A stretch of 64,000 bases of DNA from Nitrospirota bacterium (lineage in GTDB: Bacteria > Nitrospirota > Thermodesulfovibrionia > Thermodesulfovibrionales > Dissulfurispiraceae). The stretch spans positions 1,408,001 to 1,472,000 of the forward strand of contig CAWBMP010000004.1 of NCBI GenBank assembly GCA_963790025.1, written 5' to 3'. Below, piece after piece: positions 19,216 through 36,141 of the stretch. The notes beneath the pieces are model-generated. The model was given only the letters and a program-made list of their open reading frames with translations, ran no database searches and was not told the origin of the DNA. A program made the translations under genes and the position numbers. Positions within the stretch are counted from its first letter, which is position 1, and each line of letters opens with the position of its first letter.

Positions 19216-19223
19216 ATTAATGA

Positions 19224-19553: not shown

Positions 19554-20265
19554 ACGTAGGATTTAATGTTTCTAAAAAATCCGGGTTAAGCAAACCAAAA
19601 AATAATTTCTTTTCTTCTTCATGCCCTTTAAGAAGCAAATCAGAGTAAGATGTCAAAAACCCATCAAGATTCTCAGTGGTAGAAGTATCAATGTCAATAA
19701 CAGAACCCGATAAAATCTTATTCTGAACACCCAAGGATGTTTTATTTGTAATTTGAAGCACAGATGTGAATTCATTACTTTTAAGTTCAGTCCGAATAAA
19801 TGTATTATTGCTTTTCAACGGTTCGTTGCATAAATTAACTCCCAATGAAATCTTTTGAAATATGTCAAAATCAAAGAAGTTAATATATCTTAGTCCAAGT
19901 CGTTCCACTTTTTTAATAACATCAACTTCTCTTATCTTCTCGAATACATCGGCAATTTCCCTCAAGAAAATTTCCCATCCAACATATTCCGTTGGACTGC
20001 TTATAGAAATTACCTTGGGGCCTATCAATGCTCCGAAGGTTTCATTATTTATTTTATAATGAGGCTGATTTATAAAGTTAGGGTCTTGATGTCTTATCTG
20101 TTCAGGTATTTGCAAAATAGGTAATGGGTTAACCGTTGGATATTTATGTTGGAGTGCTTTAAATATTATGCCGAATACTGCGGAATATACGATATTAGGT
20201 TCAAACACGATACCAATGTTGGCATCAATAATCGGACAAGGGTCTATCTTTACCGGTATTTTCAT
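19537..20265 (-). CDS. TIGR04255 family protein
   Basis: PCPIIDA..FE, LPILQIPEQIR, YVGWE, VERLGLRYINFF, VIDID, H..EK..FF.LL. Confidence 0.8.
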   Translation of the reverse strand: MKIPVKIDPCPIIDANIGIVFEPNIVYSAVFGIIFKALQHKYPTVNPLPILQIPEQIRHQDPNFINQPHYKINNETFGALIGPKVISISSPTEYVGWEIFLREIADVFEKIREVDVIKKVERLGLRYINFFDFDIFQKISLGVNLCNEPLKSNNTFIRTELKSNEFTSVLQITNKTSLGVQNKILSGSVIDIDTSTTENLDGFLTSYSDLLLKGHEEEKKLFFGLLNPDFLETLNPTYAGGQ

Positions 20266-20367
20266 TAGGTTATAAATATTATATAAAGTCTACAGGAAAA
20301 GTCTATATATGAAATGATTCGTCAGTGAAGTTTGGTAACAATGCTATATTGTGGCATTTTTATTTTT

Positions 20368-20625
20368 TTATGAATCCAATTTCTCGTAAACAAAAGTCGT
20401 TGTTGCTCCCATTAATGGTCCTATTATTTCTTTTCTCTTAACATTACATAAATTCTCAAATTTCGTGCTTCCCAATGCGGAACATACTGCGGGCAATGAC
20501 TGAGACAGGGACATCTGATGATGGATGTCTCCCGCCCTGACTGAAACCAGTTTGTCATTTCTTTTTCTTGCAGGGTTAATATAATTGTTCTTTGTAAATT
20601 CCCTAATCAAGTCTGCTTTTTTCAT
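20368..20625 (-). CDS. Small hypothetical, possibly a wHTH-like DNA-binding domain
   Basis: VRAGDIH...PAVCSAL; AGGAG RBS. Confidence 0.6.
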   Translation of the reverse strand: MKKADLIREFTKNNYINPARKRNDKLVSVRAGDIHHQMSLSQSLPAVCSALGSTKFENLCNVKRKEIIGPLMGATTTFVYEKLDS

Positions 20626-20643
20626 TTTAATTGTTCTCCTATC

Positions 20644-22044
20644 CTACCACTGTAGCCCTCTTTTAATTAAAACATCTTGTGCGTCTTTATCGCCCAGTCG
20701 CGAGGCTGTTTTGTAATCTTTGATTGCCTGCTGTTGGTTGCCTAATTTGTCATAAGCAAATCCCCGATTAAAGTAAGCCCCTGCGTCGTCAGGCTTAAGT
20801 TCTATCGCTTTATTGAAATCCTTAATTGCCTCCTGATAGTTGCCTAACTCCGCATAATCAGCCCCCCGATTACTATGAGCATATGGATAATCAGGCTTGA
20901 GTTTTATTACCTCTGACAAATCCTTAATAGCCTGCTGATGATTGCCCAAACTCCCATAAGCAAATCCCCTACGATAATAAGCCTCTGGGTCATCAGGCTT
21001 GAGTTCTATTACTTTGCTGTAATTCTTTATCGCCTCTTGAAAGTTGCCTAAACTGCGATAAGCAAGTCCCCTATCGTAATAAGCCTCAGCAAACGCGGGC
21101 TTGAGATTTATCGCTTCGTTGAAGTCTTTAATCGCCTCCTGAAAGTTGCCTAAATTGTAATAAGCAATTCCCATACCGTAATAAGCCTCAGCCCAATCAG
21201 GGTTGAGTTTTATCGCTCTGTTATATTCTTTAACAGCCTGCTGATGATTGCCCAATCTATCGTAAGAGAACCCCCTACCATAATAAGCAAGCACAGAAAC
21301 TGGTTCAAGTTTTATTGCATTATCGTAATCTTTAATAGCCTGCTGATAGTTACCTAATCTTTCGTAAGCAACTCCCCGATTATGATAAGTCAATGCGACA
21401 TCAGGTTTGAGTTCTATGGCTTTAGTAAATGCTTCCGATGCTTCTTTCCATCGTTCTGCGTTAGAAGCCTCATAACCCTTTTCAACCCAATCAACCGCAT
21501 TAAGCCCACTTATTGTCTTTTCATATGCATCTATATTTTGAGCCTCTGTTTTTTTATCCAAATCATTTGATTTTGTTGCTACCTCAAGTTTTCTTCTTAG
21601 CCTTTCGTTCTCTTTGGTTAATTCCTCTGCCTTCTTCCTTGTTTCTTCAAGTTCTTGTGTCTTGTATCTGTTTTCAACAAGTTTCTTTAAGATTTTTTCC
21701 ACTTCTTTAGGGTCAGCAGACACCTTTGCCTTCAGCCAATAAGACTTTCCGTCCCATTTTTCATCTATCACTTCCGCACCCACAATACCCGCCGAATATG
21801 TAGTCACCTGGTCTTTCGTAAGCTGCATGTTCTTTACTTCGGTCTCGCTGACAAGATACGTGCCCAGTTCTTCAAGCAACAGCCTCTTTACCGTTTCAAG
21901 AGCAAGCGTCCTACTTGAGTTCCTGCTGTCAAAATCGCTGGCTTGGTATGTGTATTCCTTCTCAAAAGTTACGGTTTCTGCAAGGGCTAACGACGGAGAT
22001 AAACAGATGATGATAAAACACAATATAAGACAGGCACGCTTCAT
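20644..22044 (-). CDS. Exported tetratricopeptide-repeat protein
   Basis: Signal peptide; about 8 tandem 34-aa TPRs (AYYNRG...QAIKDY..AI.LKP). Confidence 0.92.
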   Translation of the reverse strand: MKRACLILCFIIICLSPSLALAETVTFEKEYTYQASDFDSRNSSRTLALETVKRLLLEELGTYLVSETEVKNMQLTKDQVTTYSAGIVGAEVIDEKWDGKSYWLKAKVSADPKEVEKILKKLVENRYKTQELEETRKKAEELTKENERLRRKLEVATKSNDLDKKTEAQNIDAYEKTISGLNAVDWVEKGYEASNAERWKEASEAFTKAIELKPDVALTYHNRGVAYERLGNYQQAIKDYDNAIKLEPVSVLAYYGRGFSYDRLGNHQQAVKEYNRAIKLNPDWAEAYYGMGIAYYNLGNFQEAIKDFNEAINLKPAFAEAYYDRGLAYRSLGNFQEAIKNYSKVIELKPDDPEAYYRRGFAYGSLGNHQQAIKDLSEVIKLKPDYPYAHSNRGADYAELGNYQEAIKDFNKAIELKPDDAGAYFNRGFAYDKLGNQQQAIKDYKTASRLGDKDAQDVLIKRGLQW

Positions 22045-22480
22045 ATATCCCCCAAGTATAGAATAGCCTTATTCTATTAATGTGTCAGCACTGCGTCAAG
22101 GTAATATTCACGCTTTTTCATGATATCCATGCTTTTCCATGAGCATATATATTATATAATGAGAACACAAATATTACGTTCCTCGATTTTTTTGATAATC
22201 GGACAGCACCGGACAGCAAACGTATATATAGGAGCCGTCTGCCAAGCCCCTCTGTGATAGGAGTTGGAAGGTAGATTTAAAACGATGACAAAACCACAGA
22301 CTTGATAACGATGCACGGACGGGGGTAGGGTTTAGTAGTTCAAAGAATAGAAAATGACATAGTAAGGTATTAACCACGCCGAGACAGTGGCTTAAAAGGC
22401 TTTACGTTAAGCCACTGTAAACGATTTATGTCAGGTTCGACGGTTTTTTTATCACTCAATGACTTTTTTTAAAATAATTA

Positions 22481-23326
22481 TTATATTTTCTTTGCCTTTG
22501 ACTTTGACGTCGCCTTTGACTTTGCCATTACGGCTTTTATAGAGTCTTTCCACTTTACCTGGCGATGTCCTTTAAGAGCCTTGACGAGCCGTTTGATTTC
22601 ATCATTGGATTGCAAGGCTTCAATTTTTTCAATTGCCTTCACATTTTTCGGGATGGATGTGTCCACGCGAGTCCGCATCATCTTCATTTTGCCCAGCCAA
22701 ATAGTCTCGCTAACATGTTTCGCAATCTCCTTCACCGTAATTAATGCGTCGTCTGTCCCAAGGAGCATCGGCTCCATTGATACCGATGTGTTAAATCCAT
22801 GATCAAAAGCATAGGCAAGGGATTTTAATCTCTCAGACGGTGACGGGGCGCCGGGTTCCCAGAATTTGGCGACTTCATTCTTCAGCGTGCCGACAGTGAA
22901 CCGGAATAAAATCTGCTTCTTGAATTCACCGAATTCATCACACAACCTCTTGATGCACCGCAAATGTGGCTTAGATACAATTAGAACTTCATTGCCTGCT
23001 TTAAGCAAACTTCTAAGCACAGTAATGGCATGTGGTAAATAATCGGGAGATATGTCATGTGTCGTCGGAAACATTACCGTTCCCTTATATTTCTTGTGTT
23101 TGCTTTCAACTTTACTCTTATCGACGATCTCGTTGCTCCAATCTGCTCGTTTAAGCCTGCCATACCGCACAGCCATGCTTCGGGCATAGCAGTAGAGGCA
23201 ATCGTGAGAACAGCCCAATCCAATATTGATATTCTTTTCCGCCCATTCTTTGGTTCCTGTGCCTGTCCTCTTTTTGGGTTTTATAATTGTTTTTTTATTT
23301 GTCTTTGTGGCTTTCTTTTTTGGCAT
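22481..23326 (-). CDS. Radical SAM protein (SPL/DUF5131-like)
   Basis: GTKEWA, GCSHDCLYCYA (CxxxCxxC), WEPGAP, SMEPML. Confidence 0.82.
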   Translation of the reverse strand: MPKKKATKTNKKTIIKPKKRTGTGTKEWAEKNINIGLGCSHDCLYCYARSMAVRYGRLKRADWSNEIVDKSKVESKHKKYKGTVMFPTTHDISPDYLPHAITVLRSLLKAGNEVLIVSKPHLRCIKRLCDEFGEFKKQILFRFTVGTLKNEVAKFWEPGAPSPSERLKSLAYAFDHGFNTSVSMEPMLLGTDDALITVKEIAKHVSETIWLGKMKMMRTRVDTSIPKNVKAIEKIEALQSNDEIKRLVKALKGHRQVKWKDSIKAVMAKSKATSKSKAKKI

Positions 23327-23461
23327 GATTGTTATTCCTCCTTTTCCTAAAGTCCCGCCATTTTAGCACTATCAGCGTAATCCTATTCATACATTAAAAT
23401 GTGGTTGCGACAGGTTTTATCCTTTAATATCGGGAATAAATGACTAATCTTAAATTTGCCG

Positions 23462-23631
23462 TTATGAAGGGTATGAATAGTATGAAAGCACTTTTATAAT
23501 TTTCGCATACGTATACATATATTGTTTTTTTATGAAATTGCCTTCATAGTATTCACAAACCTTCATGAGCCTTTTAAATCAATAAGATATAACCATGAAG
23601 GACAATGAAAGGTTCCGGCAACCCTTCATGG
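23462..23631. repeat. Array of ATGAA(GG)/(CC)TTCAT short repeats between divergent genes
   Basis: About 9 copies in both orientations. Confidence 0.7.
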
Positions 23632-23691
23632 TTTTTCGGCTGCTAAAAAGACGGTTGGCATGGCGGTTAAGGTGAACTATAATTATAGTGT

Positions 23692-24132
23692 ATGAAACGC
23701 AATACACAACACACATCTTCCGCCGCTGTGATGGCTACTGGAGCCGAACTTTCCCGACGGGGTTATGATGTTACTTTCACTCTCGGTAATACACGTAAAG
23801 TGGACATGTTGTGCTCGGTTCCGGATGGGCAAACTTTCAAAATTCAGGTGAAGGGAATTTCTAATCCAGCTGCTTTTTACATTGATAAATCTTTTTTCGA
23901 TGGAGATGCTCAACAATACCTCTTTTTGGTAGTTGTACTCGTTCCGAAATGCATTAGCTCACCGTTTAAATTCTTTATTCTTTCCCATAAAGAAGCACAG
24001 GAGGAATTTAATAAACTGCCCACACATAAAAGGGATGGCAGTCTCATTACAAAAGGGTTTGGACTCGGTTGGAGTTCGATTAAGTTTTATGAGAATAGGT
24101 GGAATACATTCCCTATAGTTCAGAAGGAATAA
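23692..24132 (+). CDS. PD-(D/E)XK-fold nuclease
   Basis: ELSRRGY...GNTRKVDML...KIQVKG. Confidence 0.75.
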   Translation: MKRNTQHTSSAAVMATGAELSRRGYDVTFTLGNTRKVDMLCSVPDGQTFKIQVKGISNPAAFYIDKSFFDGDAQQYLFLVVVLVPKCISSPFKFFILSHKEAQEEFNKLPTHKRDGSLITKGFGLGWSSIKFYENRWNTFPIVQKE

Positions 24133-24151
24133 GCCCTACCACTCAATTAAA

Positions 24152-24262
24152 ACCAACATACCAATAAACCAATAAACCTGCTTGGCAGTGCTGGCTATGA
24201 AAAAACAGCATTATAAGAGCCGTCATAGCCTGCCTGCCAATAAACTCAAACCAATAAACTGT
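24152..24262. repeat. CCAATAAAC repeats flanking a TTGGCAG..GGCTATGA / TCATAGCC..CTGCCAA inverted repeat
   Basis: Four CCAATAAAC copies plus a dyad. Confidence 0.65.
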
Positions 24263-24547
24263 CTATATCTTCCGGTGAATAATAAGCTCACAGTCCGCTT
24301 TCTGTGGTTTACGCCTGCCTGTCATGATGTCAAAGACAATTTGAGGGACATCATATCCGGCCTGCGTTAAATCAGAAATAATCTGGGTAGCCGACACAGT
24401 CTCGCGTGGATAAGCGAACTCGACATCGTATTCATGAAACTCCCGCAATATGTCCTGTAACTGGGCATTAAGATATTCATCCATCAGTTCCGTTGTTTCC
24501 ACTTGCCTCGCCCTCGGCGATTTCTTTTTCTTGAATATTTTAAACAT
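24263..24547 (-). CDS. Hypothetical protein
   Basis: AAGGAGG RBS before MFKIFKKKK. Confidence 0.6.
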   Translation of the reverse strand: MFKIFKKKKSPRARQVETTELMDEYLNAQLQDILREFHEYDVEFAYPRETVSATQIISDLTQAGYDVPQIVFDIMTGRRKPQKADCELIIHRKI

Positions 24548-24605
24548 AGTAGCGTCCTCCTTATTTCCTATAAATATATGACGATGCAACTGCAAAAATA
24601 AATCA

Positions 24606-24743
24606 TGGTGTGTGTGGGGTTAAAAAAATCTCCGAAAGGCAAAACCAGTGCAGAGCAGAAACAGCCGTGGTGTGTGTGGGTTGAACCTACGAAGTCAGAA
24701 ACAGGGCAGAGGCAAGAAGAGTCTTTAAATCTGGTGTGTGTGG
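24606..24743. repeat. Three TGGTGTGTGTGG direct repeats (periods 62 and 64 bp)
   Basis: Exact 12-mers at 24606, 24668 and 24732. Confidence 0.8.
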
Positions 24744-24792
24744 TAAAAGAACCGGAGAGCCATTAAAGAAATAGGATAATTACTAAAAAATC

Positions 24793-25020
24793 TTAGTCAT
24801 CCCCGTGGTTAATATTGTCAATATAAAATTTATCTGTGATTGAAAGACTGGTTGTTCTTTCCATGTCGTTACAGTTATCGTCTTCTTCGTGTCTGCCGAT
24901 ACTTTCATTGTTTATTCCTTTATTATTCTTAATACCTTTCCGTATTCTGTAAATAATTATGCCAGCAAGCGATACAAACACAATCATAAATCCGATAGTA
25001 ATAATGCCTTCAAAGTTCAT
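24793..25020 (-). CDS. Small single-TM protein
   Basis: GGAGG RBS; IITIGFMIVFVSLAGIIIY. Confidence 0.5.
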   Translation of the reverse strand: MNFEGIITIGFMIVFVSLAGIIIYRIRKGIKNNKGINNESIGRHEEDDNCNDMERTTSLSITDKFYIDNINHGDD

Positions 25021-25302
25021 TTTACCGCCTCCCACAAATCCAATATTGCCGCCGATATCCATGCTTCAATATACCACATATCGGAACTATATATGAGAAC
25101 CTCATTCTTTTATACGGTGTTACCACATAAAGAAACTATATATAGTCGCCAGATTGTTTTATCGTGACACTCATAAAGTAGTCTCAATGTGTAGTTCCCA
25201 ATTTATTTTATTGATGCCACGCAATCAGGAGTTGCATTTTGGGTATTTACAGAGCGTGAGGGTATGCACCGCATACCTGACACTATATATCGGAGGTAAG
25301 TA

Positions 25303-25536
25303 ATGAAAGTTTTTGTAAAGGTAACGCTGAACCAATCATCAGCATTTGAAAAACTTATAATGCAGGAACTCGGAGACAACCGCGCGGGCAGTATTAAGAA
25401 ATTATCGTATGAGGGGATATTATTCCGACGTTTTCTTGCCTCGCTACTCCCTGCACAAACGGAAACTGTAACACCCATTTCGGAACCGAAGAAAAATGAA
25501 CCGACGGGCATAGGCGATATCATGGGAGAATTTTAA
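25303..25536 (+). CDS. Small hypothetical protein (possible RHH)
   Basis: GGAGG RBS; 77 aa. Confidence 0.5.
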   Translation: MKVFVKVTLNQSSAFEKLIMQELGDNRAGSIKKLSYEGILFRRFLASLLPAQTETVTPISEPKKNEPTGIGDIMGEF

Positions 25537-25539
25537 TTT

Positions 25540-25929
25540 ATGGCGATACCAAAGAAAGTTGAACGATTAATACTGAATATAGCCAGCAGGACAGACAACC
25601 CCATGGATTTCGCTATGGCTATACTGCACGAACGCCGTCTTATACGCTGGCGACTGTCTCGATTATCAAAGGCAGACAAGGTGAACCTAATAGCAACTTC
25701 GAAGCCTGGCCTCCATAACGCTATGGACATATTTCTCTATAGCAGAATGTCCGGACTATTGCAGTCAGGGAAAACCATACGCATGCATGAAGTGCTGTCT
25801 GAAGCATCCAAGTTTTTTCAGTGTTCAATTACACTTTCATTAAAAATAAAAGCATACCGTGTAAGGGAGATTGTCTATCAGGAGCGTAAATATAAAAAGA
25901 GGAAAATGCAGGCTGTGCTGGAAACATAG
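25540..25929 (+). CDS. Basic hypothetical protein
   Basis: 129-aa ORF directly downstream of 25303-25536. Confidence 0.45.
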   Translation: MAIPKKVERLILNIASRTDNPMDFAMAILHERRLIRWRLSRLSKADKVNLIATSKPGLHNAMDIFLYSRMSGLLQSGKTIRMHEVLSEASKFFQCSITLSLKIKAYRVREIVYQERKYKKRKMQAVLET

Positions 25930-26107
25930 TCTCTCACCAAGCATAATAATGATACGTTTTTTTTAGTTTTGCATAATTCACCAACCTAAAAAACAGCATC
26001 ACCGCCGAAGTCGAAGCCGTTGCCTTTCCGTTCCGACAGCCGTCGCTAAACTTATGTTCCTCCTGTCAAAAGATTGAAAAGCAAGAATTGACATTTCATC
26101 GAGAACT

Positions 26108-27172
26108 CTAATATTTATGCTGAACCGGCGGCCATGGGAAAGTATTAAAGTCAATTTCTTTAATAGTTCCATCTTCATTATGTAACCATGTCATTACACT
26201 ATCGGGGGGGACAAAAATTGAGCTAAGGGGAACGTCTAATCTATCCGCCAACAGCTGTGCATAAACATTCGATTTCCACTCGTCAAACAATGGCTTCTTG
26301 CTAAGCCCCGCTAATGGCATCTGGTATACCTTGAGTGTTTCTTTTCCTTCCTCTTCAAACCATATATACTTCGGAACTCTATTAAAGAGTGCAGCCTTGT
26401 AGCTAACGCAAGTAGCAATTTCTTGAAATTGAACCGGATGTAATGCCATGTCCCTATATTTATCCCAGAAGTCATCATCATATTGTTGTGCCCCGCCATC
26501 TTGTAAGACAGCAATTATACCGACATCTGACATGCGGCAGGATATGAACATGTTATTTAAACCATCACCAAAATCCCATTGATACCTGACGTCATCTGGA
26601 GATTTAGTTTTGAAAATAAGGAGTGAGGCTGGGAAGAACCCATCGAATATTATGGGACGTCTTAGGCTCTGTAAAAAAAAATGATGCATCTGAAATTCGT
26701 TCAGCAATTCAGGTGAGGTTATAGCCTCACTTTCAGGGGAACTTCTATCAAACGCTAAAAAAAGTTCCTTATACAGTATTCCGTAAAATATTTTCCCAAG
26801 CCACTGAAAAAGGGTTAACTTATCTAACGTTTGAACAGCCTTGACTCCCTGTGCAACTGCATCGGCAACTTTAGTTTCTATAGGTTGAAGAACTTTGTTA
26901 TTACATTCGTAGCAGGCAGGTATCGTTAACTGTCTATATAAAATTGTTGTTCCATTCAGAAGATATAATTTTTGGTCCCATAACTCATAAGAGTTCTGAG
27001 CCCATGTTGGAATTACATGTTCTCTTGTTAACGATTTTTGCGTTACCTTCTGTCCGCATAAAAAACAATGCTCATCACTAAAACTGCGTTCGAAAACTGC
27101 CTTGTATAACCTACTGGGAGCATCACTTTCCATAATACAATTATACATATCTGACATAAGAAATTTACACAA
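26108..27172 (-). CDS. HNH-like endonuclease domain protein (start uncertain, may be 27133)
   Basis: CFLCG...TREHVIP.W...IPACYECNN. Confidence 0.75.
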   Translation of the reverse strand: MCKFLMSDMYNCIMESDAPSRLYKAVFERSFSDEHCFLCGQKVTQKSLTREHVIPTWAQNSYELWDQKLYLLNGTTILYRQLTIPACYECNNKVLQPIETKVADAVAQGVKAVQTLDKLTLFQWLGKIFYGILYKELFLAFDRSSPESEAITSPELLNEFQMHHFFLQSLRRPIIFDGFFPASLLIFKTKSPDDVRYQWDFGDGLNNMFISCRMSDVGIIAVLQDGGAQQYDDDFWDKYRDMALHPVQFQEIATCVSYKAALFNRVPKYIWFEEEGKETLKVYQMPLAGLSKKPLFDEWKSNVYAQLLADRLDVPLSSIFVPPDSVMTWLHNEDGTIKEIDFNTFPWPPVQHKY

Positions 27173-27242
27173 TGACGCTATGAAAAGTTATCACCAATAT
27201 GTAATATATAAGCGTGCGAGGGAATGAAAGGAGCAGAATAAG

Positions 27243-27788
27243 ATGGCATTTTTGATTTATGAAAAACAAGGTAATTATTTAATTCCAACCGGAGAATATT
27301 ACAGTCTTGCTGGATATAACTTGATATATAATTTGTGGGAGAAGAGAAAGAAACCAACTGATGAGGGTTGGCACATGAGCGCCGATGATTTAATTCAAGA
27401 ATATACCGAAGGCAAGGGCAATATTGAGACCCACTCACTTCTTATAGACTTCCATCCTGGCGCTACGAGAAGAATCGGAATTATAGAACTTTTGGATATT
27501 TATGCATATACATATTCTGGTAGTTCTGACATTGAAGCGGCTTGGACGCCAATGATGCTTAGATTACGAGAAGTTTTTTACAAGGATGATTATAAAAATG
27601 AAATCACCAGGTCGGAAAAGGAAGCAACGCTGAAGAAACTCGCACAACCTTCAGCAGATGCCGACGATTTTGTCGAGTTTCTATATCTCAATGGAAATGA
27701 TAAGGGTTGGAACTGGGGTCGTAACGGAATGGTAAATGCGGCATTCATACATGCTCCGGCAAGAGCATATTTCAAGAAATATTTTTAG
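27243..27788 (+). CDS. Hypothetical protein
   Basis: AAGGAG RBS; 181 aa, Trp/Tyr-rich. Confidence 0.7.
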   Translation: MAFLIYEKQGNYLIPTGEYYSLAGYNLIYNLWEKRKKPTDEGWHMSADDLIQEYTEGKGNIETHSLLIDFHPGATRRIGIIELLDIYAYTYSGSSDIEAAWTPMMLRLREVFYKDDYKNEITRSEKEATLKKLAQPSADADDFVEFLYLNGNDKGWNWGRNGMVNAAFIHAPARAYFKKYF

Positions 27789-27997
27789 TAAGCCGAATAT
27801 TGTGGTAAGTAATTCATTGATAATCCCTAAAGGTATTGCAGACGGGTTATACCGTGTAATGAAAAAGGCATAGTGCAAATAATCATACCTTGTTTACCAT
27901 GTCAAGCATCGAAATAGTCACATCCGCCGTAAGCAACGATATTGCCATTTGTAACTTTTCAGGCTATATCAAACATCTTGTCTGTCACTCGCCAAAA

Positions 27998-28333
27998 TTA
28001 TCTGTCCTCCTGCCAAGCCCAAGCCGCTATTGTTGGGTTTCCCGGTTCAACGCTCTCTATCTGCATATCGGGGGTTACATCAAACCATACTTTACGTAAC
28101 TCTTGCGGATACTTTGGATTAATATGTTCGAGTGCATGAGAAACAAAGGATGCAGGGGAATAGTATACACCTGCCCCTGCTCCCATTTGCGCAGAATACT
28201 CCGCCTCGATTCTCGCCGCCAAGGGTGCATCTCTTTTCTTAATCCTATTGAAGATTTGGTAAGGGAAAAGGAAATGTCCTCCCGACTCCCTGAGAACCTC
28301 TATAAGAACAGCGTCAATTTCATTAAAATGCAT
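27998..28333 (-). CDS. Hypothetical protein
   Basis: AAGGAGG RBS; co-oriented with the upstream NDT-like gene. Confidence 0.65.
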   Translation of the reverse strand: MHFNEIDAVLIEVLRESGGHFLFPYQIFNRIKKRDAPLAARIEAEYSAQMGAGAGVYYSPASFVSHALEHINPKYPQELRKVWFDVTPDMQIESVEPGNPTIAAWAWQEDR

Positions 28334-28357
28334 CTGTAAGCCTCCTTGTGTTACGAA

Positions 28358-29329
28358 TTATTCATCTGTAAGTATGGCATCTTCCGGGAGTGTCGCTCGA
28401 ATTGTCGCCTTTAACTCCTCTCCCGTTGCATCCGGATTATCCGCATCCCATTTTATCGTAAGGTGATGGTTGGTATCAAAATGTGTCTTAGCCTTGTCAA
28501 ACTTAGTTTTTTCACAGGTATAAATCACCGGTTTATTTAAGCCCTCTGCATATCCAGCTTCCCAGTATGCCCCGGCATTGTCATGAGTAAGGTCGGCAAT
28601 CAAAAATCGTGATGTCCGTATTTCTACTCGTAATCTATCGTCAATCAGTCCTGCCCGCTGATTGTCCGTTAACAGGCGCAAATCAAACCCAGTTTTTTGA
28701 ACGGCAGGCTTAAAGACGTTTTCAACAATTGTCTTCAGTGGCTCTTCTCCAAATTTCATAGCCATAAACGCCTTTCGGCTACTCTTAACTCCTTTCTTCA
28801 ACTCTTCATAGTATTTCCATCCATCAAACGTAAGAGTCTGAGATAAATTGTTGACACTATATTCCCCTCCTTTACCTTCAATCAGTTTTTTGCTAACCAG
28901 ATATAGAAGAATAAAATAGAATCCGTCGTCGGACTTTGCACCGATAATTGACTGGTGAGTCTGTGCCCTGATATCCATGCACTCCCCTGGACCTTTAACA
29001 TTGTCACCCAACCACAAGATAAAGTTGTCGGCTTGCTCCATTGGATTTGGCAGTTTGCCTTTTAAGACGGTTTCAACAATATCCTTTGAAAGCAATGGTG
29101 TCTTCATGCGACGAACGCTATGGCTGAGCAATGCAATTCTTTCAGTGTCGTTATCAAGTATGCCCTTAAGAGAGGCATGCATTACAAAATCCACTGAGAA
29201 TTCTCCGCACCTTGGACAATCATATGTCGTATCCATGCCCATTATGTTTGGTGCACGCCCGCGCGCCGCTGTCTGTGCGGGATGAAAAAGTGTCGAATTG
29301 CATATTAAACATTGCGTTTCTATTTCCAT
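28358..29329 (-). CDS. Zn-ribbon + wHTH + nucleoside 2-deoxyribosyltransferase/TIR-like domain protein
   Basis: CLIC..CPRC; LTFDGW; AFMAMKF...IADLTHDNAGAYWEAGYAEGLNKPVI...HFD. Confidence 0.8.
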   Translation of the reverse strand: MEIETQCLICNSTLFHPAQTAARGRAPNIMGMDTTYDCPRCGEFSVDFVMHASLKGILDNDTERIALLSHSVRRMKTPLLSKDIVETVLKGKLPNPMEQADNFILWLGDNVKGPGECMDIRAQTHQSIIGAKSDDGFYFILLYLVSKKLIEGKGGEYSVNNLSQTLTFDGWKYYEELKKGVKSSRKAFMAMKFGEEPLKTIVENVFKPAVQKTGFDLRLLTDNQRAGLIDDRLRVEIRTSRFLIADLTHDNAGAYWEAGYAEGLNKPVIYTCEKTKFDKAKTHFDTNHHLTIKWDADNPDATGEELKATIRATLPEDAILTDE

Positions 29330-29390
29330 GATGTGCTCCCTTTTCGGTAAATATAACACAGCCGAGCAAGCCTTCAATAGCTTGAAACTA

Positions 29391-29487
29391 CATTTTCAGC
29401 CCATATCAGACATCCTGTCAGCCTAAAATAACGGTGTGTAGAGCTTTATATTAAGCCGTTCTTGCCCTTCCGGATGGGAAAAGGTAT
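29391..29487. repeat. About 97-bp direct repeat, copy 1 (flanks SRAP)
   Basis: About 78% ungapped identity to 30262-30359 by manual alignment. Confidence 0.8.
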
Positions 29488-29553
29488 GGAATGGCGGGGA
29501 ATGAACCTGATAGCGATAAACGCTGAAATGCCGTATATGTATTAACCTTGTAT

Positions 29554-30222
29554 TCACTCTTCAACTGGCAGTATATTTGTTGCCGAATCGAACTTCGGAG
29601 AATTTACCGTATTAGACACCTGATACATCTCCATTTCTTCTGATGCATAGGGACGCAGAAAACCCTTCAGTGCATTGTAATCCTTAACCCCCGGATTTAA
29701 CCACAAGTCCACGTTCTCCTCCGGGACTATGACCGGCATGCGGTTATGTATGGCAGATACCAAACTATTCGACTCAGTTGTGATAATTGCGCATCCGCAA
29801 ATTTTACTTACAGCAGGCAATGACGAATACTGATATAGTCCAGCAAAGCCCATGGGCTTGCCGGATTTTAACCTGATGTAATAAGGAATCTTTTTCTGTT
29901 TGTCTCGCTTCCACTCATAAAACCCATCGGCTATAACCAGACACCTGTGTTTTTTGAATGCCTCTTTGAAGTATGGTTTCTCATCAATAGTCTCGGCTCT
30001 GGCATTAATCATGGGGCTTGCTTCGGAAATATCTTTTATCCATGGAGGCAAGAACCCCCACCGGCATTTGATAAGTTCCCTTATCCCTGTATCGTTGATA
30101 ATGACGATATCTTGCGAAGGTGCAATATTATGGCTGGAGGAAATCTCAAATGATGCAGGCGCCGCATGGAATATCTCTATTATTGTAGAGACGGGACTGC
30201 TTCTGACAAATCTGCCACACAT
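29554..30222 (-). CDS. SOS response-associated peptidase (SRAP/YedK/HMCES family)
   Basis: MCGRF N-terminus, NIAPSQ, INARAET, GFYEW, HNRMPV. Confidence 0.95.
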   Translation of the reverse strand: MCGRFVRSSPVSTIIEIFHAAPASFEISSSHNIAPSQDIVIINDTGIRELIKCRWGFLPPWIKDISEASPMINARAETIDEKPYFKEAFKKHRCLVIADGFYEWKRDKQKKIPYYIRLKSGKPMGFAGLYQYSSLPAVSKICGCAIITTESNSLVSAIHNRMPVIVPEENVDLWLNPGVKDYNALKGFLRPYASEEMEMYQVSNTVNSPKFDSATNILPVEE

Positions 30223-30261
30223 GATTTAACATATCATTCCGGGCAGGATATGTCCATTTAC

Positions 30262-30359
30262 CACTTTTGAGCCTATATCAGACAACCTGTCTGTCTGAGA
30301 AAGTGGCGTGTCGGGCTTTATATTAAGCCTTTTTTGCCTTCCCGGTAGCAAAAAGGTAT
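30262..30359. repeat. About 97-bp direct repeat, copy 2 (flanks SRAP)
   Basis: Shares ATATCAGACA.CCTGTC, GCTTTATATTAAGCC and AAAAGGTAT with 29391-29487. Confidence 0.8.
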
Positions 30360-30398
30360 CAATACGCCACTCGAGGCCGAAGTAAGCCCAAATAGGCT

Positions 30399-31157
30399 CT
30401 ATTTCAATTTTGGGAATTCCTGTGTAAAAGTTCCGCAATAATCCTTGATATTGTTTTTCATGAAAATCGGGATTTTATAAGCTTTGCATTGCCTTGTTAT
30501 TTCATTTACCCATGCCCTGTCGGGAGCAGGAGCATTTTTACCTGTCTGGGCTCCCAGTATTATCCACTGAAAGTCCGCCAAGTCAAAACTTATTGGGCCG
30601 AGGAGAGGTTCAATGCTCAGGAACCTGACAGGCGCCGACACCTTCTTTAATATCTCCGCCCTTGCCATATCTCTGTCGGAATTAACGGAAGTCCCTACAT
30701 AAGAATTATCAGGGAATTTAAACTCCGCCAACCTTTTCGGATTTTTTGTCAGGAACATGAAAGTATGCCGGGAACATTCTTTTGTCACCTTCAGCACCGC
30801 CTCTATCCAGTCAGTCGGAACCCATGCTCCAAACAAATCGCCGACGTCAACAACAAATACCTTGCCCGGTTCCTTTGCCTTATATGGTTCAACCAGCCTA
30901 TGCGGATAAAAAGTGCAGTCATAGCCGTAGGGATTGATTTCCCCCTGCTTCGCAATATGCGTTCCACCGCTCTCCCTTTTTCGCCAGTCTTTCTCGTAGA
31001 CAAGTTCTCCGGCCTTATTCTTGTACCGAGCCCCGAACCTGTTAAGCGGTGAAGTTGATTTCAAGGTGTTGTAGCAGTATTGGTTACGGCATGCGTGATA
31101 GCACCCGGATACCGGGTTCCAAGTGTAGTCGCACCACTCAATAGATGTTTTATTCAT
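30399..31157 (-). CDS. DUF5131 (phage Gp37/Gp68) radical SAM-like protein
   Basis: TSIEWCDYTWNPVSGC, VFV..GDLF, FLTKNP, FLSIEPLL, WIILGAQTG. Confidence 0.9.
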   Translation of the reverse strand: MNKTSIEWCDYTWNPVSGCYHACRNQYCYNTLKSTSPLNRFGARYKNKAGELVYEKDWRKRESGGTHIAKQGEINPYGYDCTFYPHRLVEPYKAKEPGKVFVVDVGDLFGAWVPTDWIEAVLKVTKECSRHTFMFLTKNPKRLAEFKFPDNSYVGTSVNSDRDMARAEILKKVSAPVRFLSIEPLLGPISFDLADFQWIILGAQTGKNAPAPDRAWVNEITRQCKAYKIPIFMKNNIKDYCGTFTQEFPKLK

Positions 31158-31467
31158 GTTTGCTCCTCCTGCTCCTTAATTTGGACTCAACCACGAGTGG
31201 TTGCTCACCCTCGGGGTAGAAGAGCCCGCCGTCAAGTTCATCCACTCTAGTTGCTGGGTGGCACAAGTAGACGATATATCCGCGTCTCCCCATGTAAGTT
31301 CTTCCCCCGCTCCTAACACAATTCCGTTTAGCTTCTTCTATTGTGTCACCTTTCCCCCAATACCCTGGTGTCCCTGCCGTCTTACAGAGGTATTCGTAAC
31401 CTTTAAGTTTTGCCATTACCTGATCCTCATAAGTCGTGCCAGTTGTCTCTGATGACTGCTCGATCAT
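31150..31467 (-). CDS. Hypothetical protein
   Basis: GAGGTG RBS within the duplicated upstream module. Confidence 0.65.
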   Translation of the reverse strand: MIEQSSETTGTTYEDQVMAKLKGYEYLCKTAGTPGYWGKGDTIEEAKRNCVRSGGRTYMGRRGYIVYLCHPATRVDELDGGLFYPEGEQPLVVESKLRSRRSKHE

Positions 31468-31640
31468 ATACTCACCTCATAGAAAAACCGTTTTTTTTAG
31501 CCGACAATCGCCATGTTATATTTAACCATCGTGCGATAGGTAGAGTCCAGTCGAAAAAAATAATCTTTAAAATTCAACAATATTCTCAACCGGTGACCCG
31601 GTGCAATGAATTTCCCTGCAATTTCAGGGAATTGAGGGAA
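31465..31640 (-). promoter_or_regulatory. Duplicated upstream/promoter module (copy B)
   Basis: Near-identical to 4949-5135 in two blocks with conserved spacing. Confidence 0.8.
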
Positions 31641-31884
31641 ACGGGAAAGCGCTGACATCCGACATGAGTTTAAAACCATAGGACGCAGAATTGAACCTTA
31701 CGCCGATAATCACGCAAATTTGCAGGCTCTCCTTGGTAGTCCCTGATCCATACAAGTCTCCGGCCATATTTATCCAACCTCCACCAATCTCTTGTCTCAT
31801 CATCCTTTATCCTGTTTGCGTTCTCTTCCTTCTCGTTCTTTTTTTATTGAAGTGGGATATGGTACATATAGAATAGTCTCCTAA

Positions 31885-31998
31885 AATAGGAGTGCTAATT
31901 ATGTAAGAAGTGGCTTTAAACGCTACTGTTTTAGGAGTGTTTTTTTGCATGATTGATTTAAACGCTACCATTATAGGAGCGTAAGCACTCCTATAATA
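31885..31998. repeat. Iteron-like repeats, putative replication origin
   Basis: TTTAAACGCTAC x2 (42-bp period), TAGGAGYG x3, dyad ATTATAGGAG-N8-CTCCTATAAT; directly 3' of the wHTH gene. Confidence 0.6.
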
Positions 31999-32005
31999 GG
32001 GGTTG

Positions 32006-32410
32006 TTACTGTTTTCCATGAACTTCCTCACAGTATCCATCATGTCGTTCCAGGAATTCCGGAGTCCCGTATCGTTGGTATCTTTGCGAGAGACGGTATT
32101 TCGTGCAGGCTTTTCCCTGATATCTCATGCCGCCCCTATGGACAATATCAACGAATCCGAGTTCATGTAGCCGCTTTATGCCCCTATCAAAAGCAGAGGC
32201 ATGTAAGCCTGATTTCTTCGCTTCTCTGTAGGTGAGAGTGAATTCGTATGAAAACCTGTCGTGTGGATTGTTCGTTTTGACTTTTCGCATACAAAGAATC
32301 AGAGCGTGCATGGCAGCACCGGTTAGCTCCTTAAATGATAGGCTGTCAATAATTTCATATGTGATCGGCACAAAGCCACCAACAATTTTATTGCTCTTTT
32401 TCTTCTTCAC
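32006..32410 (-). CDS. Winged-HTH protein, possible replication initiator
   Basis: FVPITYEIIDSLSFKELTGAA...FTLTYREAK...FDRGIKRLHELGFV. Confidence 0.6.
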   Translation of the reverse strand: MKKKKSNKIVGGFVPITYEIIDSLSFKELTGAAMHALILCMRKVKTNNPHDRFSYEFTLTYREAKKSGLHASAFDRGIKRLHELGFVDIVHRGGMRYQGKACTKYRLSQRYQRYGTPEFLERHDGYCEEVHGKQ

Positions 32411-32419
32411 AATATTTCA

Positions 32420-32620
32420 TCATTGCCCCACTTCTTCGGGCGAGCGGCTCCCCGCAGGCGACCCGATGCCAGAGGGGAGTGGCGTAAATCCACTCCCGTT
32501 GTTGAAATGGTTCTCCACCTGTGATACAGTATTTTTATCAATTTTGTTCAGCGATTTATTGGAAAGCCCTTGTTCCCGCAAGGGCTTTTCCATTCCCTTA
32601 CCTGCGTCAACTATTTTCAT
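32420..32620 (-). CDS. Small hypothetical protein
   Basis: GGAGGAG RBS; ATGA coupling. Confidence 0.4.
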   Translation of the reverse strand: MKIVDAGKGMEKPLREQGLSNKSLNKIDKNTVSQVENHFNNGSGFTPLPSGIGSPAGSRSPEEVGQ

Positions 32621-33024
32621 TTGGCTCCTCCGCAGATATGCCCACTTTCAGATTCCAAAGTCTCACCACATTGCAAACATCTATCTATTTCCAACTGGAC
32701 TAATATCCACCACCCGTTTCTTATCCGCACCGGTAGATGTTCGACGTTTTCAAAGGCTCGTTTTAAGACCCACCTCACCGGTTGGGCAAAAGATGGACAT
32801 GGCCAACGCACCAACGCAACCTCTAGCCATGAGGCAAAATCGAAATCCTTATCCAGTATCTTTGCGACACTCAGAGGATAAAGATCTGTTTTCTCCATTG
32901 TATCGCGGCAGTCATCATGACTGCCCGTGTAAATTACGGACCCTCGCAGGGTATCCATTGTGAACCCAACGACAACGTAATCTGCCAAGGGCTTTTCCAC
33001 TTCCTTACTTGATGTTTTCACCAT
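32617..33024 (-). CDS. Hypothetical protein
   Basis: GGAG RBS; overlaps the ERF gene end. Confidence 0.55.
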   Translation of the reverse strand: MVKTSSKEVEKPLADYVVVGFTMDTLRGSVIYTGSHDDCRDTMEKTDLYPLSVAKILDKDFDFASWLEVALVRWPCPSFAQPVRWVLKRAFENVEHLPVRIRNGWWILVQLEIDRCLQCGETLESESGHICGGAK

Positions 33025-33832
33025 TTTTACTCTCCTTGTCTTTCTGTTCTTTTGCTTCCTTTTCCTTTACCATTTTAATCAGTGTTCCGATTAGCGTTAT
33101 CGCCTGCTTTTTGGAAATATCCTTTGTGCTTTCAAGACGGCCATCAATGCCCAAAATCCGAGCAGTTTCCGCAAGCCTACGCTCTCTTTCCTGCCTCAAA
33201 AATGGTGTAAATTCGGCATCCTGTTCTGGCTCCTGATACCCCAATATCATGAACTCCTTGTGGATGCGTCCCAGTTGATCATTTGTCAGTTTTTCATCAT
33301 CAGTGTGGAAAACTTTTTCCGCCACTGATTCTACCGGCTTGATTGTCGGGTTATCTGCATCCTGTTTTTCCCGACGCACAAAGGATTCCAGTTCCACTGC
33401 CTCAACAGGCGGCAAGGGTTTGAGATTTACATTTCCTCTTCCGCATGCGGCGTTGCCGTCATCATCGTCGTCATCCGTCGCAATTCCGACAATGCCCATG
33501 AGCGAATATCGTCTCGCATAGGTTATAGCGGAACCAATTCCCTGCGGGTCGTTTTTTACAGGCGGCATCGACAATTTACTGCTTATCCACTGACCCGAGT
33601 TATGCATAAGTGTCGTTACGACTATCACAGCGTCTGGACTGCATTCGGTTGTCTGGGTTACTGATAATCCGTTATCAGATAGCGGTTTGCGAATTACGTC
33701 CCAACATGCAGAAAGCGGTGCGTATTTGGATTTATAAAACGGATTCGTTAAACCCTTTGCCACACTCCCTATTGCACCCTGTGTTTTGCTTAATGCCGCT
33801 GCCAACTCGTTAATGCTTGGTGAACTTTCCAT
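33005..33832 (-). CDS. ERF-family ssDNA annealing recombinase
   Basis: NPFYKSKYAPL, LMHNSGQWISS, DPQGIGSAITYARRYSL, DDDG. Confidence 0.92.
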   Translation of the reverse strand: MESSPSINELAAALSKTQGAIGSVAKGLTNPFYKSKYAPLSACWDVIRKPLSDNGLSVTQTTECSPDAVIVVTTLMHNSGQWISSKLSMPPVKNDPQGIGSAITYARRYSLMGIVGIATDDDDDDGNAACGRGNVNLKPLPPVEAVELESFVRREKQDADNPTIKPVESVAEKVFHTDDEKLTNDQLGRIHKEFMILGYQEPEQDAEFTPFLRQERERRLAETARILGIDGRLESTKDISKKQAITLIGTLIKMVKEKEAKEQKDKESKNGENIK

Positions 33833-33833
33833 A

Positions 33834-33998
33834 TTACTTTTCCTCCTGTTGTAATTTTTCCAAAATGTACACCCTCAACATTGTTGCTACATACATCCCT
33901 TTCCGCACGGCAACTTGACGGATTTGCTCCACCACGCTACCGGGCAGACGAAGATGCACACACTTGTCTTTCCTTACTGCCGTGTCTACTACATTCAT
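33834..33998 (-). CDS. RHH/CopG-like small DNA-binding protein
   Basis: VHLRLPGSVVEQIRQVAVRKGMYVATMLRVYILEKL. Confidence 0.7.
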   Translation of the reverse strand: MNVVDTAVRKDKCVHLRLPGSVVEQIRQVAVRKGMYVATMLRVYILEKLQQEEK

Positions 33999-34155
33999 CC
34001 TTTGTTCTCCTTTGTGTCTCGATTTATAGAATATGAGACACTTCATTGTTATTAAAAAAGCAGAATGAGATTCAATCTGCTCGCCTATGCTGCTAATTTA
34101 TCTCTCCAAAAAACGTAAGTCAAAAAACATTGCAATGCTTATTATTTCATTGCAA

Positions 34156-34926
34156 TCACCTATCCACCATGTCATCCGCGCAGTATGAACAAATCTGAGT
34201 CCAGCCTTGTGCTCTCCATTCAGAGATAGAACATAGGTCATCATCGATACACTTGTAGTTCAAAACTTCGTAAAAACCATCGGAAAGTGAATCGAAATTC
34301 CTTTCTATATAGTCTGAGATGCTTCCTCCATACTCACTTTCCAGCTCCGACATGAATTTGCTATCTTCAGTATCAATCTCGATTATGTATTCTGTTTCCT
34401 CACACCTCGTTTCATATCGTATGATCCTAAATTTTGTCATCTGACCCGTTTCAAAGACGTCGCTCTCATTGCCAAAAACATCCAACTGTTTTCCAACGAT
34501 CTTATTTTTCAGTTTATTTTCTTCCTCATGAGGGTCAATCGCTTTTTGTCTCAAACGCTGATTTTCCACCTGTAACTCTGTGACTATTTTATTAAGCCGA
34601 TTGTTTTCGGTTTGCTCAAACAACAATAGTCTCCATAGGTGTAAAGGTTCATTCATGCCACCTCCCTCGTCGTATTGGCAATAATGCAAGTAGTGATCTT
34701 TACAGAGGAAAAAATCGTGTTTGATGTGTGTTGCTATCGCATCACCACATACCTCGCATTCCTCTTTTCCAAAATTTAAAAATTTCTTCATCCACTCCGC
34801 CTCATACTCATCGCTTCCTCTTTCGCGACATAAGGCATAGTCGACAAAGTCGGATAATCCTTCCTCCTCGAGCCCTCCTTGTTTGCCAATCTGTTTAATT
34901 TCATTTTCATCCAAACTTTTAATCAT
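34156..34926 (-). CDS. Acidic hypothetical protein with Zn-finger and coiled coil
   Basis: GGAGGGG RBS; CEVC...LCKDH. Confidence 0.6.
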   Translation of the reverse strand: MIKSLDENEIKQIGKQGGLEEEGLSDFVDYALCRERGSDEYEAEWMKKFLNFGKEECEVCGDAIATHIKHDFFLCKDHYLHYCQYDEGGGMNEPLHLWRLLLFEQTENNRLNKIVTELQVENQRLRQKAIDPHEEENKLKNKIVGKQLDVFGNESDVFETGQMTKFRIIRYETRCEETEYIIEIDTEDSKFMSELESEYGGSISDYIERNFDSLSDGFYEVLNYKCIDDDLCSISEWRAQGWTQICSYCADDMVDR

Positions 34927-35143
34927 CTTTCCCCTCCATCAAAAGTTTTATTTGCCGGTAACTTGACCTGCATGCATATTTAAACTCTGTTTTCCGCGCC
35001 TTCCAAATCGGGTTTTTACGATAATGATACGACGTTGATTTATCACAGTATTTTTTTGCAATGGATTGCAATGACATTTTATTTTTTATTTCAGGGAAAT
35101 GAGGGAAATGTCTGTAATGGGGAATAATAGATACTGTTAAGGG

Positions 35144-35665
35144 TTAAAAACCATGTCGGGATAATGTCTCTGTGAAGGCAGGTTGTTTGTATGTAGAACC
35201 TACAGTCTCATCCAAAAATTTGGCTATCAACTGCAAATTCTTTTGTGATGGCTTTATGCGTCCAGATATCCAATCCGTTAACTGTTCGGGGTGTCGATTC
35301 ATCACCTTCGCCAGTCGCTCATATGATAATCCATTAACCTTCTTATAAAAATCCAGATTTCTGACAACATCTTCAATAGGTGGACGCTCAAATGGCATAT
35401 AGCCGAGGAACTCAATAATCTTGGGTATATGGACTAATTCCGGTTCTGTTAAGTCCTTCTCCCAGTGAAGTATTGTCTGTTCAGATACCCGGAATATTGT
35501 CGAAACTGCCAATTGTGTTAAGTTTCTATCCATACGAGCTTTTCTGATGTGTTCGCCTATCCGTGTCGGCACTTTGGGATAGCCTTTTGGCGACATTTCT
35601 GGTAAAATCAAAGACATGCGATATAGGAGCATCTTTGAAAAAGTTGGAAAAGTGTCCGCAGGAAT
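35144..35665 (-). CDS. Tandem XRE-family HTH protein; frame open up to and across the att junction, start unclear (ATGs at 35632/35617 lack an SD)
   Basis: GYP..PTRIGEHIRKARMDRNLTQ...TILHWEK..EP; second HTH GLSYERLAKVMNRHPEQLTDWISGRIKP. Confidence 0.8.
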   Translation of the reverse strand: MPADTFPTFSKMLLYRMSLILPEMSPKGYPKVPTRIGEHIRKARMDRNLTQLAVSTIFRVSEQTILHWEKDLTEPELVHIPKIIEFLGYMPFERPPIEDVVRNLDFYKKVNGLSYERLAKVMNRHPEQLTDWISGRIKPSQKNLQLIAKFLDETVGSTYKQPAFTETLSRHGF

Positions 35666-35675
35666 GTCCCTGCGG
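35656..35675. other. Putative attR of the LSR island
   Basis: Dyad CCGCAGG-AATGTC-CCTGCGG centred on TG 35665-35666, exactly where comM similarity (CPCGY) resumes. Confidence 0.7.
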
Positions 35676-36141
35676 TTACCTGGGCGACCCGCGGCATCAG
35701 TGCACCTGCACTCCCGGCATGACCAATCGCTACCGGTCAAAAATCTCGGGGCCGCTCATGGACCGTATCGATATTCATGTAAACGTGCCCTCCGTTCCTT
35801 ACAAGGAACTATCAGGAGACTATTCCGGAGAGAAGTCGGAACTATTACGGCTGCGGGTATATGAGGCAAGAGAACGGCAGTTGAACAGGTTCAAAGGCGA
35901 TAAAATTTTCGCCAACGGCCAGATGAAGACAAGGCATATAAAGAAGTACTGTGCTCTTTCCGAAGATGCTCACAGCCTTCTTGATACCGCCATGCAGCGG
36001 CTTAACTTAAGTGCTCGCGCTTATTCAAGGATACTTAAAGTCGCGCGGACAGTAGCAGACCTGGACAGTGCCGAGGCAATCGGGAGCAGCCATGTCGCCG
36101 AGGCAATACAGTACCGCATGCTCGACAGGGGACAAGTTTAG
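35665..36141 (+). pseudogene. comM: 3' fragment of comM/yifB (Mg-chelatase-like AAA+), disrupted by the island
   Basis: CPCGYLGDPRHQCTC...KISGPLMDRIDI...LSARAYSRILKVARTVADL...AEAIQYR; the normal upstream AAMNP motif is replaced by island sequence. Confidence 0.92.

Follow-up and report, generated by a model that had tools for sequence, protein, structure and literature searches.

A mobile island in comM of a Nitrospirota bacterium with the attachment site of its large serine recombinase inside the recombinase gene

Recombinases with an attachment (att) site in their own coding sequence are known from archaeal mobile elements. In the SSV-type integrases (SSV1, SSV2, pTN3, and pT26-2), integration splits the integrase gene, and the whole protein is encoded by the free form only (PMC8371274). 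These enzymes are tyrosine recombinases targeting tRNA genes, and the passages devoted to them call both pieces of the split gene inactive pseudogenes (PMC8371274). A 2021 review, where it treats this self-gene-cutting principle, describes it as exclusive to archaeal tyrosine integrases. Here, we analyze a 64,000-nt stretch of a Nitrospirota genome (G000:C4:1408001–1472000; hereafter, the window), which contains an island of about 36 kb integrated into comM. A large serine recombinase (LSR) gene is located at the left end of the island, and an open reading frame (ORF) for two XRE-type helix-turn-helix (HTH) domains is located at its right end. Very probably, the HTH ORF is the 3′ third of the LSR gene: the attachment site of the free element, attP, would lie in the linker between the two parts, the gene would be split on integration, and the full-length protein would be encoded only by the excised circle.

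The likeness to the SSV-type systems is the position of the att site within the coding sequence of the recombinase itself. The enzyme described here is a bacterial serine recombinase with comM as a target, whereas the SSV enzymes are archaeal tyrosine recombinases (Phage_integr_3) inserting into tRNA genes. The SSV split parts an N-terminal piece from the catalytic part, whereas here just an added HTH tail is lost, and the integrated ORF retains all canonical LSR domains. A second related system is the integration-dependent immunity of mycobacteriophages (clusters G, N, and P; BPs and Brujita), in which, according to the sections on these phages, attP lies in an HTH repressor gene beside int, and the truncated repressor, which loses an ssrA-like tag, is the active stable form (PMC9262239). 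In both cases, integration alters the C-terminus of a product, and the free and integrated forms encode different proteins. There, however, the altered gene encodes a separate repressor and is co-transcribed with that of a tyrosine integrase, and attB is in a tRNA gene, whereas here the integrase itself is cut, in comM. In an engineered fusion of a serine integrase with a recombination directionality factor (RDF), the C-terminal module sets the direction of recombination (PMC5737554). That fusion is synthetic and carries a known RDF favoring attL x attR, whereas the present one is natural, occurs in the attP state only, and carries a tandem XRE HTH. Listeria phage A118 is similar with respect to the target: its LSR enters the conserved coding sequence of comK, and excision restores the gene (PMC3556126). 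As at our locus, a competence gene is interrupted by an LSR element; the passages on A118 contain neither an attP inside the LSR gene nor an HTH tail. In the LSR survey of Durrant et al. (10.1101/2021.11.05.467528), one “ATP-dependent protease” gene was hit by 12.4% of the predicted site-specific LSRs; the main text of the survey reports no attP inside an LSR gene and uses the term “helix-turn-helix” 0 times, and its supplements could hold such cases. In open-access papers and bioRxiv, we found neither a serine recombinase nor any bacterial integrase described as split by its own attP. The protease gene of the survey may be comM/YifB, which is our guess and is not stated in that text.

The LSR gene enters the window at its left end and reads outward toward the left junction, attL, on the minus strand, the same strand as the HTH ORF. 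Its first 290 codons run from the start ATG at position 872 to position 3, and codons 291–511 follow on the contig to the left (whole integrated ORF, positions 3340–4872 of locus L001). The N-terminus of the protein matched Resolvase (PF00239, 1.1e-30, residues 5–150), and S10 of the V-S-T motif was invariant across the alignment of fused proteins. A Recombinase domain (PF07508) was found at 4.5e-18. The match to Zn_ribbon_recom (PF13408) in the LSR (5.4e-4) had 20.7 bits, which is under the Pfam cut-off of 25.3; its four Cys residues were invariant in the family alignments. With these three domains and with CA/TG-centered att sites flanked by symmetric arms, the predicted enzyme qualifies as an LSR. 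The 511 codons consist of a 493-aa core and 18 further codons: the integrated frame crosses the attL crossover, and its last 18 residues are encoded by antisense comM. This host-encoded tail is 18 aa long in this island and 8 aa long in 10 of the 16 islands compared below. The LSR thus does not stop before attL, and no terminator-like site was found after it in positions 3000–5300 of L001. A promoter-like site (TTGAAA-17 nt-TAAAAT with TG; window 909..937, minus strand; L001 4937–4909) lies about 37 nt before the LSR start and agrees with 10 of 12 consensus positions; this is a consensus match only. The genome contains one LSR and one HTH module of this family. The LSR family profile gave an additional weak resolvase match elsewhere in the same genome (G000:C4:1313854–1314306).

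At the right end of the island, a minus-strand frame is open from position 35740 to the stop at 35144–35146 and continues for 91 nt beyond the island junction into antisense comM. The part assigned to the split LSR gene comprises 173 codons from I-P-A-D-T-F to G-F (35144..35665, minus strand). It begins with a linker of about 34 residues of low model confidence (approximately 35563–35665), followed by HTH domain 1 (approximately 35405–35560) and HTH domain 2 (approximately 35192–35368), all on the minus strand. Two HTH_3/HTH_19 domains were recognized at residues 62–114 and 136–178 of the ORF (HTH_3, 2.7e-16; HTH_19, 8.6e-09). The AlphaFold2 model, based on a 19-row alignment, had a per-residue confidence (pLDDT) of 54–66 for residues 1–30 and of 94–98 for residues 31–150 and showed two four-helix bundles. 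The nearest folds of each HTH unit in Foldseek were single-domain XRE proteins (P22 c2, 434 Cro, C-proteins, ImmR, and HipB), all with E ≥0.02; neither a tandem-HTH analogue nor any match at E ≤0.001 was found by Foldseek. A search of 1.84 billion representatives with a profile of the HTH module returned proteins with many HTH repeats and stand-alone calls of 128–240 aa at the top; the representatives come without genomic context, and fused and split forms are therefore not countable among them. The repeat proteins (P0122–P0128) contain many XRE HTH repeats, e.g., 24 matched stretches in a protein of 4162 aa and 10 in one of 1002 aa, and P0123 (393 aa) contains the whole HTH module three times, including the P-K-I-I-E-F-L-G-Y motif.

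Both halves of comM flank the island, which occupies positions 1..35664 of the window, extends about 606 nt beyond window base 1, and has a total length of about 36.27 kb. The 5′ fragment (L001 2337–3392, left of the window) has 352 codons and ends with A-A-M-N-P; the 3′ fragment (35665..36141, plus strand) has 158 codons starting with C-P-C-G-Y, plus the stop. In Pfam, the 5′ fragment matched ChlI and then positions 1–158 of the Mg_chelatase profile, and the 3′ fragment matched positions 159–206 of this profile and Mg_chelatase_C (1.9e-33). The halves thus meet without loss at profile positions 158/159, and the order ChlI, Mg_chelatase, Mg_chelatase_C is that of ComM/YifB, an Mg-chelatase-like AAA+ protein. 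ComM has a role in natural transformation, and insertion of the island inactivates the gene.

The left junction reads ...AAT CCC TG followed by the island, and the right junction, attR, reads the island followed by TG T CCC TGC.... The crossover dinucleotide of attR is located at 35665..35666 (TG on the plus strand, CA on the LSR-sense strand) and coincides with the first two bases of the codon for the first Cys in comM N-P-C-P-C-G. A hexamer repeated in this genome allows either a 6-bp or a 2-bp core to be read. With the 2-bp TG core, the break in the Mg_chelatase profile falls exactly between P and C. In all 16 islands compared, CA closes the island side of attL just before an antisense Pro codon, and RCA, antisense to Cys, closes the host side of attR. 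Contigs of relatives with uninterrupted comM (run X3) aligned from position 35665 or 35668 and were preceded there by the end of the 5′ half. The 6-bp core, which implies attB N-P-C-G-Y, was rejected based on the Pfam break, the 16-island comparison, and the intact comM of the relatives. The two core readings are 6 nt apart, so the frame argument presented below does not depend on the choice between them. The right attP arm (35648..35657, minus strand; GGACACTTTT) is separated from the central dinucleotide by 7 nt; the same distance separates the left arm (AAAACTGTCC), which falls outside the window to the left, from the CA of attL. Each arm is 10 nt long, and 9 of 10 positions pair. Symmetric arms are likewise present in the other islands, and the arms of some relatives are 15–19 nt long. 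Among the Logan contigs of run X1, which holds the organism, none covered 35474–35711, and this run is silent on attP, attB, and circles.

When attL and attR were joined in silico at CA, T-F of the LSR was followed directly by I-P-A-D-T-F, and one ORF of 666 aa was obtained (493 aa of LSR core and 173 aa of HTH segment), the frames of the LSR (at attL) and of the HTH ORF (at attR) having equal phase. As reconstructed, attP thus lies inside the linker between the LSR and the two HTH domains, and integration into comM cuts the gene. A first-pass annotation, made from the window alone, had proposed that excision would place the LSR directly upstream of the HTH frame and might fuse the two; the rebuilt attP bears out the fusion, as do natural contigs with the uninterrupted gene. 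The crossover itself had been placed at D|I, a position that divides the true central CA (35666–35665, minus strand).

The same join was possible in related islands. A genome scan based on the alignment of fused proteins detected 80 loci spread over many phyla; the hosts of the relatives are bacteria. In 56 of the 80, counted by hand, the LSR adjoins antisense comM ending with A-A-M-N-P, and in three it adjoins the comM 3′ part in sense, i.e., in the opposite orientation; the other 21 have no adjacent comM (contig ends, other targets, or, for L129, a partial match). Among the 30 genomes searched, the LSR corresponded to profile positions 1 to ~495. A separate HTH match (from ~490–505 to 640) was located 14–140 kb upstream on the same contig and strand in 16 of them, and in 14 it was on another contig or not listed. 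The HTH ORF adjoined the comM 3′ part in 15 of 15 pairs of standard orientation. An in-frame join produced an uninterrupted LSR-HTH ORF of 628–709 aa in all 16 related islands (the present one and those of 15 genomes from several phyla). The phase of CA relative to the codons differs between these islands (C|A in eight, CA|N in eight), and the HTH phase fits each time. The linker also varies in length, with the first helix 82–113 nt from the junction. A phase change and several indels, all of them frame-preserving, are expected under selection for a continuous ORF. One of the genomes, the Nitrospirota metagenome-assembled genome G001, contained, in addition to the complete island on C9, three comM-3′/HTH junctions on short contigs, each different from the others (L259, L260, and L261 on C109, C140, and C80, respectively); probably, several strains were binned together, each with a different comM island.

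Uninterrupted LSR-HTH genes also occur naturally. A search for LSR homologues gave 4511 matches at E ≤0.001 among 8000 scored. Among the 120 listed, eight were 598–658 aa long and contained HTH_3 (PF01381), and most of the others were 483–515 aa long. The eight fused proteins match the LSR up to ...C-K-x-x-Q/H-T and the HTH ORF from D-T-F, including the stretch before its first Met. All 16 rebuilt proteins gave a single high-scoring segment pair across the junction with a natural fused protein; rebuilt G001 and P0013 shared 75.7% identity in a gap-free alignment of 639 aa, and rebuilt G007 was 74.6% identical to P0065 with one gap. A metagenome scan gave another 80 loci, of which 42 were integrated into comM in the standard and two in the reverse orientation, eight were uninterrupted LSR-HTH ORFs (631–674 aa), 18 were contig ends, and 10 were other. 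The best dinucleotide-centered inverted repeat of the linker was centered on CA in seven of the eight fused metagenome ORFs and on GA in L236. Three fused loci with long flanks had mobile-element genes on both sides (the flanking genes of fused loci encode type IV coupling proteins, ArdC, IS21, a Thoeris-like TIR protein, SLATT, and methylases), an arrangement that fits the two ends of an element being joined. The fused P0109 and the LSR P0103 shared 95% identity through residue 493, beyond which they were unrelated. The ORF of P0103 (L109) reads into an alcohol-dehydrogenase-like gene and not into comM, resulting in 704 aa with ADH_zinc_N. These two proteins evidently represent a natural attP/attL pair at another target, and P0103 evidently demonstrates target switching within the LSR family. 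Searching longer proteins with the HTH part found two, both of recombinase-HTH type, by means of a word index too insensitive for counting. In viral contigs, the best relative of the LSR was merely 44% identical, and the HTH part had no match.

The alternative that the HTH ORF is an independent gene, i.e., an XRE regulator expressed from the integrated island from an unrecognized promoter and an SD (Shine-Dalgarno)-independent start, with incidental continuity of the frame, bears directly on its start signals. The ORF has three in-frame ATGs before the first helix, at 35632, 35617, and 35596; the first-pass annotation had the first two right and gave the third as 35593, 3 nt off. Its statement that none of them is preceded by an SD agrees with the duplex energies with the canonical anti-SD, which were +2.7, −0.9, and +0.6 kcal, respectively, compared to a median of −5.1 kcal for 27 island starts (many at −7 to −11.6) and a background median of −2.2 kcal. 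No sigma-70-like site was found upstream of the ORF on the minus strand, and the region 34800–36300 gave three sites against 2.7 expected, none of them suitably placed; consensus scans overlook many promoters. Only 5 of the 16 islands have an ATG in the stretch from the junction to the first helix, two of these ATGs being created by the junction itself, and a candidate start (ATG, GTG, or TTG) with an SD of −6 kcal or better was present in 3 of 16. A separate gene would agree with the three ATGs of this island, with the blind spots of promoter scans, and with the many stand-alone family proteins of 128–240 aa listed by gene callers. It is opposed by the 16 of 16 in-frame rebuilds in two codon phases, by the scarcity of starts, by the existence of natural fused ORFs, and by the homologues, which keep not only the frame but also the peptide upstream of the first Met, in agreement with the natural fused proteins. 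We consider an independent gene very improbable, and the HTH part, for which the sequence offers no SD, consensus promoter, or conserved start of its own, is probably not a separate gene.

The reading of the HTH ORF as the detached end of the LSR gene implies the following cycle. With attP in the linker-coding stretch, recombination with TG of comM cuts the LSR gene. In the integrated state, the core ends in 18 antisense-comM residues, and the HTH part is located at the far end of the 36-kb island. Excision would restore comM and rebuild the 666-aa LSR-HTH gene on the circle. The full-length protein would be produced from the free circle only, i.e., after excision or after transfer to a new cell. 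Since the circle encodes the full-length protein, this would be the form present for integration, and the tail-less core, as the only product of the integrated copy, would be the form available for excision.

The HTH tail may be an accessory module of the recombinase, binding DNA or docking on the core and required or regulatory in the circle; we propose this function tentatively, as slightly more doubtful than not. The tail would then not be a regulator of cargo genes, and the reaction itself would toggle the enzyme between two isoforms. A role in recombination is favored by the conservation of the tail together with the recombination module and not with neighboring genes, and by the retention of one HTH/att unit per cassette in the arrays described below. 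In the complex prediction, LSR core and HTH module scored 0.42 and the best of three controls 0.00; of 157 solved complexes, 116 pass the mark, as do 2 of 215 mismatched pairs, and at scores of 0.60 or less just 18 of the 157 solved complexes and both passing mismatches are found. The runs had at least 51% contact agreement and a partner pLDDT of at least 75, which hints at docking of the predicted HTH module on the LSR core. It is conceivable, but unlikely, that the topology of the gene also sets the direction of recombination, with a tail-bearing integrase on the attP circle and a tail-less excisase in the integrated copy. A conserved RDF candidate was not found within 4 kb upstream of the LSR: no gene occurred in more than 17 of 52 loci, and the largest cluster excludes this island. 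If direction is set in this way, the comM elements of many phyla would possess a self-contained integrase-att module, perhaps without a separate directionality factor; recombinase-less HTH/att cassettes could use the module, and any circle would regain a full-length gene.

The same anatomy could also serve as a transcriptional switch of the excised state, in which the tail, fused or cleaved, would act as a transcription factor reporting the circle, much as the attP within the repressor gene does in integration-dependent immunity, the analogy drawn in the first-pass annotation. As a repressor or activator, it would control the promoter of the element itself or its genes for transfer or replication. 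Both domains have XRE folds like those of phage repressors, and the long linker of low model confidence could let the tail reach distant DNA. On the circle, a same-strand operon for ERF, SRAP, and DUF5131 would follow the HTH segment. Ahead of this operon, about 70 nt past the HTH stop, the direct repeat ATTGCAA occurs twice with a 10-nt period (35053–35070, minus strand). This repeat may be a binding site but has no counterpart in the 15 other islands, and the search for an operator past the HTH stop revealed no repeat, palindrome, or motif common to the 16 islands. Nothing beside the HTH segment is conserved between islands, and their cargo differs; what they share is limited to the LSR and the HTH/att unit, which ties the tail to recombination. 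Such a switch seems to us rather doubtful.

A third possibility is that the split is suicidal: the tail-less LSR would be inactive and the island locked until a related incoming element supplied the full-length enzyme in trans, a scheme proposed for the SSV-type integrases. An attP inside the recombinase gene is indeed found in SSV1, pTN3, and pT26-2 (PMC8371274, in its passages on these elements), and related elements are frequent in many phyla. Arrays in which one LSR accompanies several HTH/att units, found in G007 and G008 (L178, G007:C15:458764–467631; L177; L262 and L263, G008:C45), would also be explained. A comM 3′-end remnant of 29 nt stands before the second HTH/att unit of G007; the three units of G008, spaced at 6.2 kb, are preceded by ...CA without a remnant of comM or LSR. 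The split, however, leaves the enzyme with all catalytic and DNA-binding domains that a canonical LSR has. The HTH fragments are intact ORFs in 16 of 16 islands, and 8 of the 80 metagenome loci are in the attP state, which argues for frequent cycling. We regard permanent inactivation of the integrated LSR as quite unlikely.

Several observations weigh against a split LSR gene with a tail that functions in recombination. XRE HTH domains are typical of transcription factors. The truncated core retains every canonical LSR domain, and catalysis may therefore not require the tail. Because the 16 islands have a common ancestry, 16 of 16 in-frame joins are not 16 independent trials. The circle and the 666-aa protein of this organism are predicted from sequence. 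In G002 and G011, the sole match was the LSR, with no HTH part. Further exceptions are found among the loci with the reverse orientation at the same comM position (L083, L084, and L085 in genomes, L180 and L234 in metagenomes), in which the comM 3′ part, read in sense, comes after the LSR. A conserved TGA terminates the LSR of L084 and L180 26 nt short of the crossover, and the two parts would there be separate ORFs or would be joined by readthrough only. The frame past this TGA has the phase of the HTH frame at the other end of the G026 element, as worked out by hand. The join of G026/L083, as read, has a stop at the crossover; in this locus, which contains an assembly gap (NN), the LSR frame as assembled continues into comM, resulting in an ORF of 618 aa.

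The remaining genes of the island vary between related islands. Here, they encode a D12 methylase (1379–2665), an ArdC anti-restriction protein with a metallopeptidase domain (5656–6516), and a defense-type block (9079–16404) consisting of a NERD nuclease with a topoisomerase zinc ribbon, a PLD-like nuclease, and a complete type I restriction-modification system (10699–16404; HsdR 10699–13449, HsdS 13451–14917, HsdM 14920–16404). A small serine resolvase/invertase of 239 aa (17795–18514) has a Resolvase domain only and is unrelated to the LSR at the island end. A TPR protein, a radical-SAM protein, ERF, SRAP, and DUF5131 were also recognized by Pfam. The GC content of the island is below that of the flank from 38 kb onward, and no phage structural genes were recognized in the island by Pfam. 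The island looks like an integrative, probably mobilizable, element carrying defense cargo.

The self-splitting principle of recombinases would thus be extended to bacteria and to serine recombinases, in a milder form in which a domain is detached and the enzyme is not killed. This may be a basis for a serine integrase to tell integration from excision. Catalogues mined from integrated elements would record LSRs of this type with a truncated, partly host-encoded C-terminus, and the tail would be annotated as a small HTH regulator of no relation to them; compared with such catalogue entries, the native enzyme of integration would be about 150 residues longer. The family is widespread: the same two bases of comM are occupied in 56 of the 80 loci from genomes and in 42 of the 80 from metagenomes.

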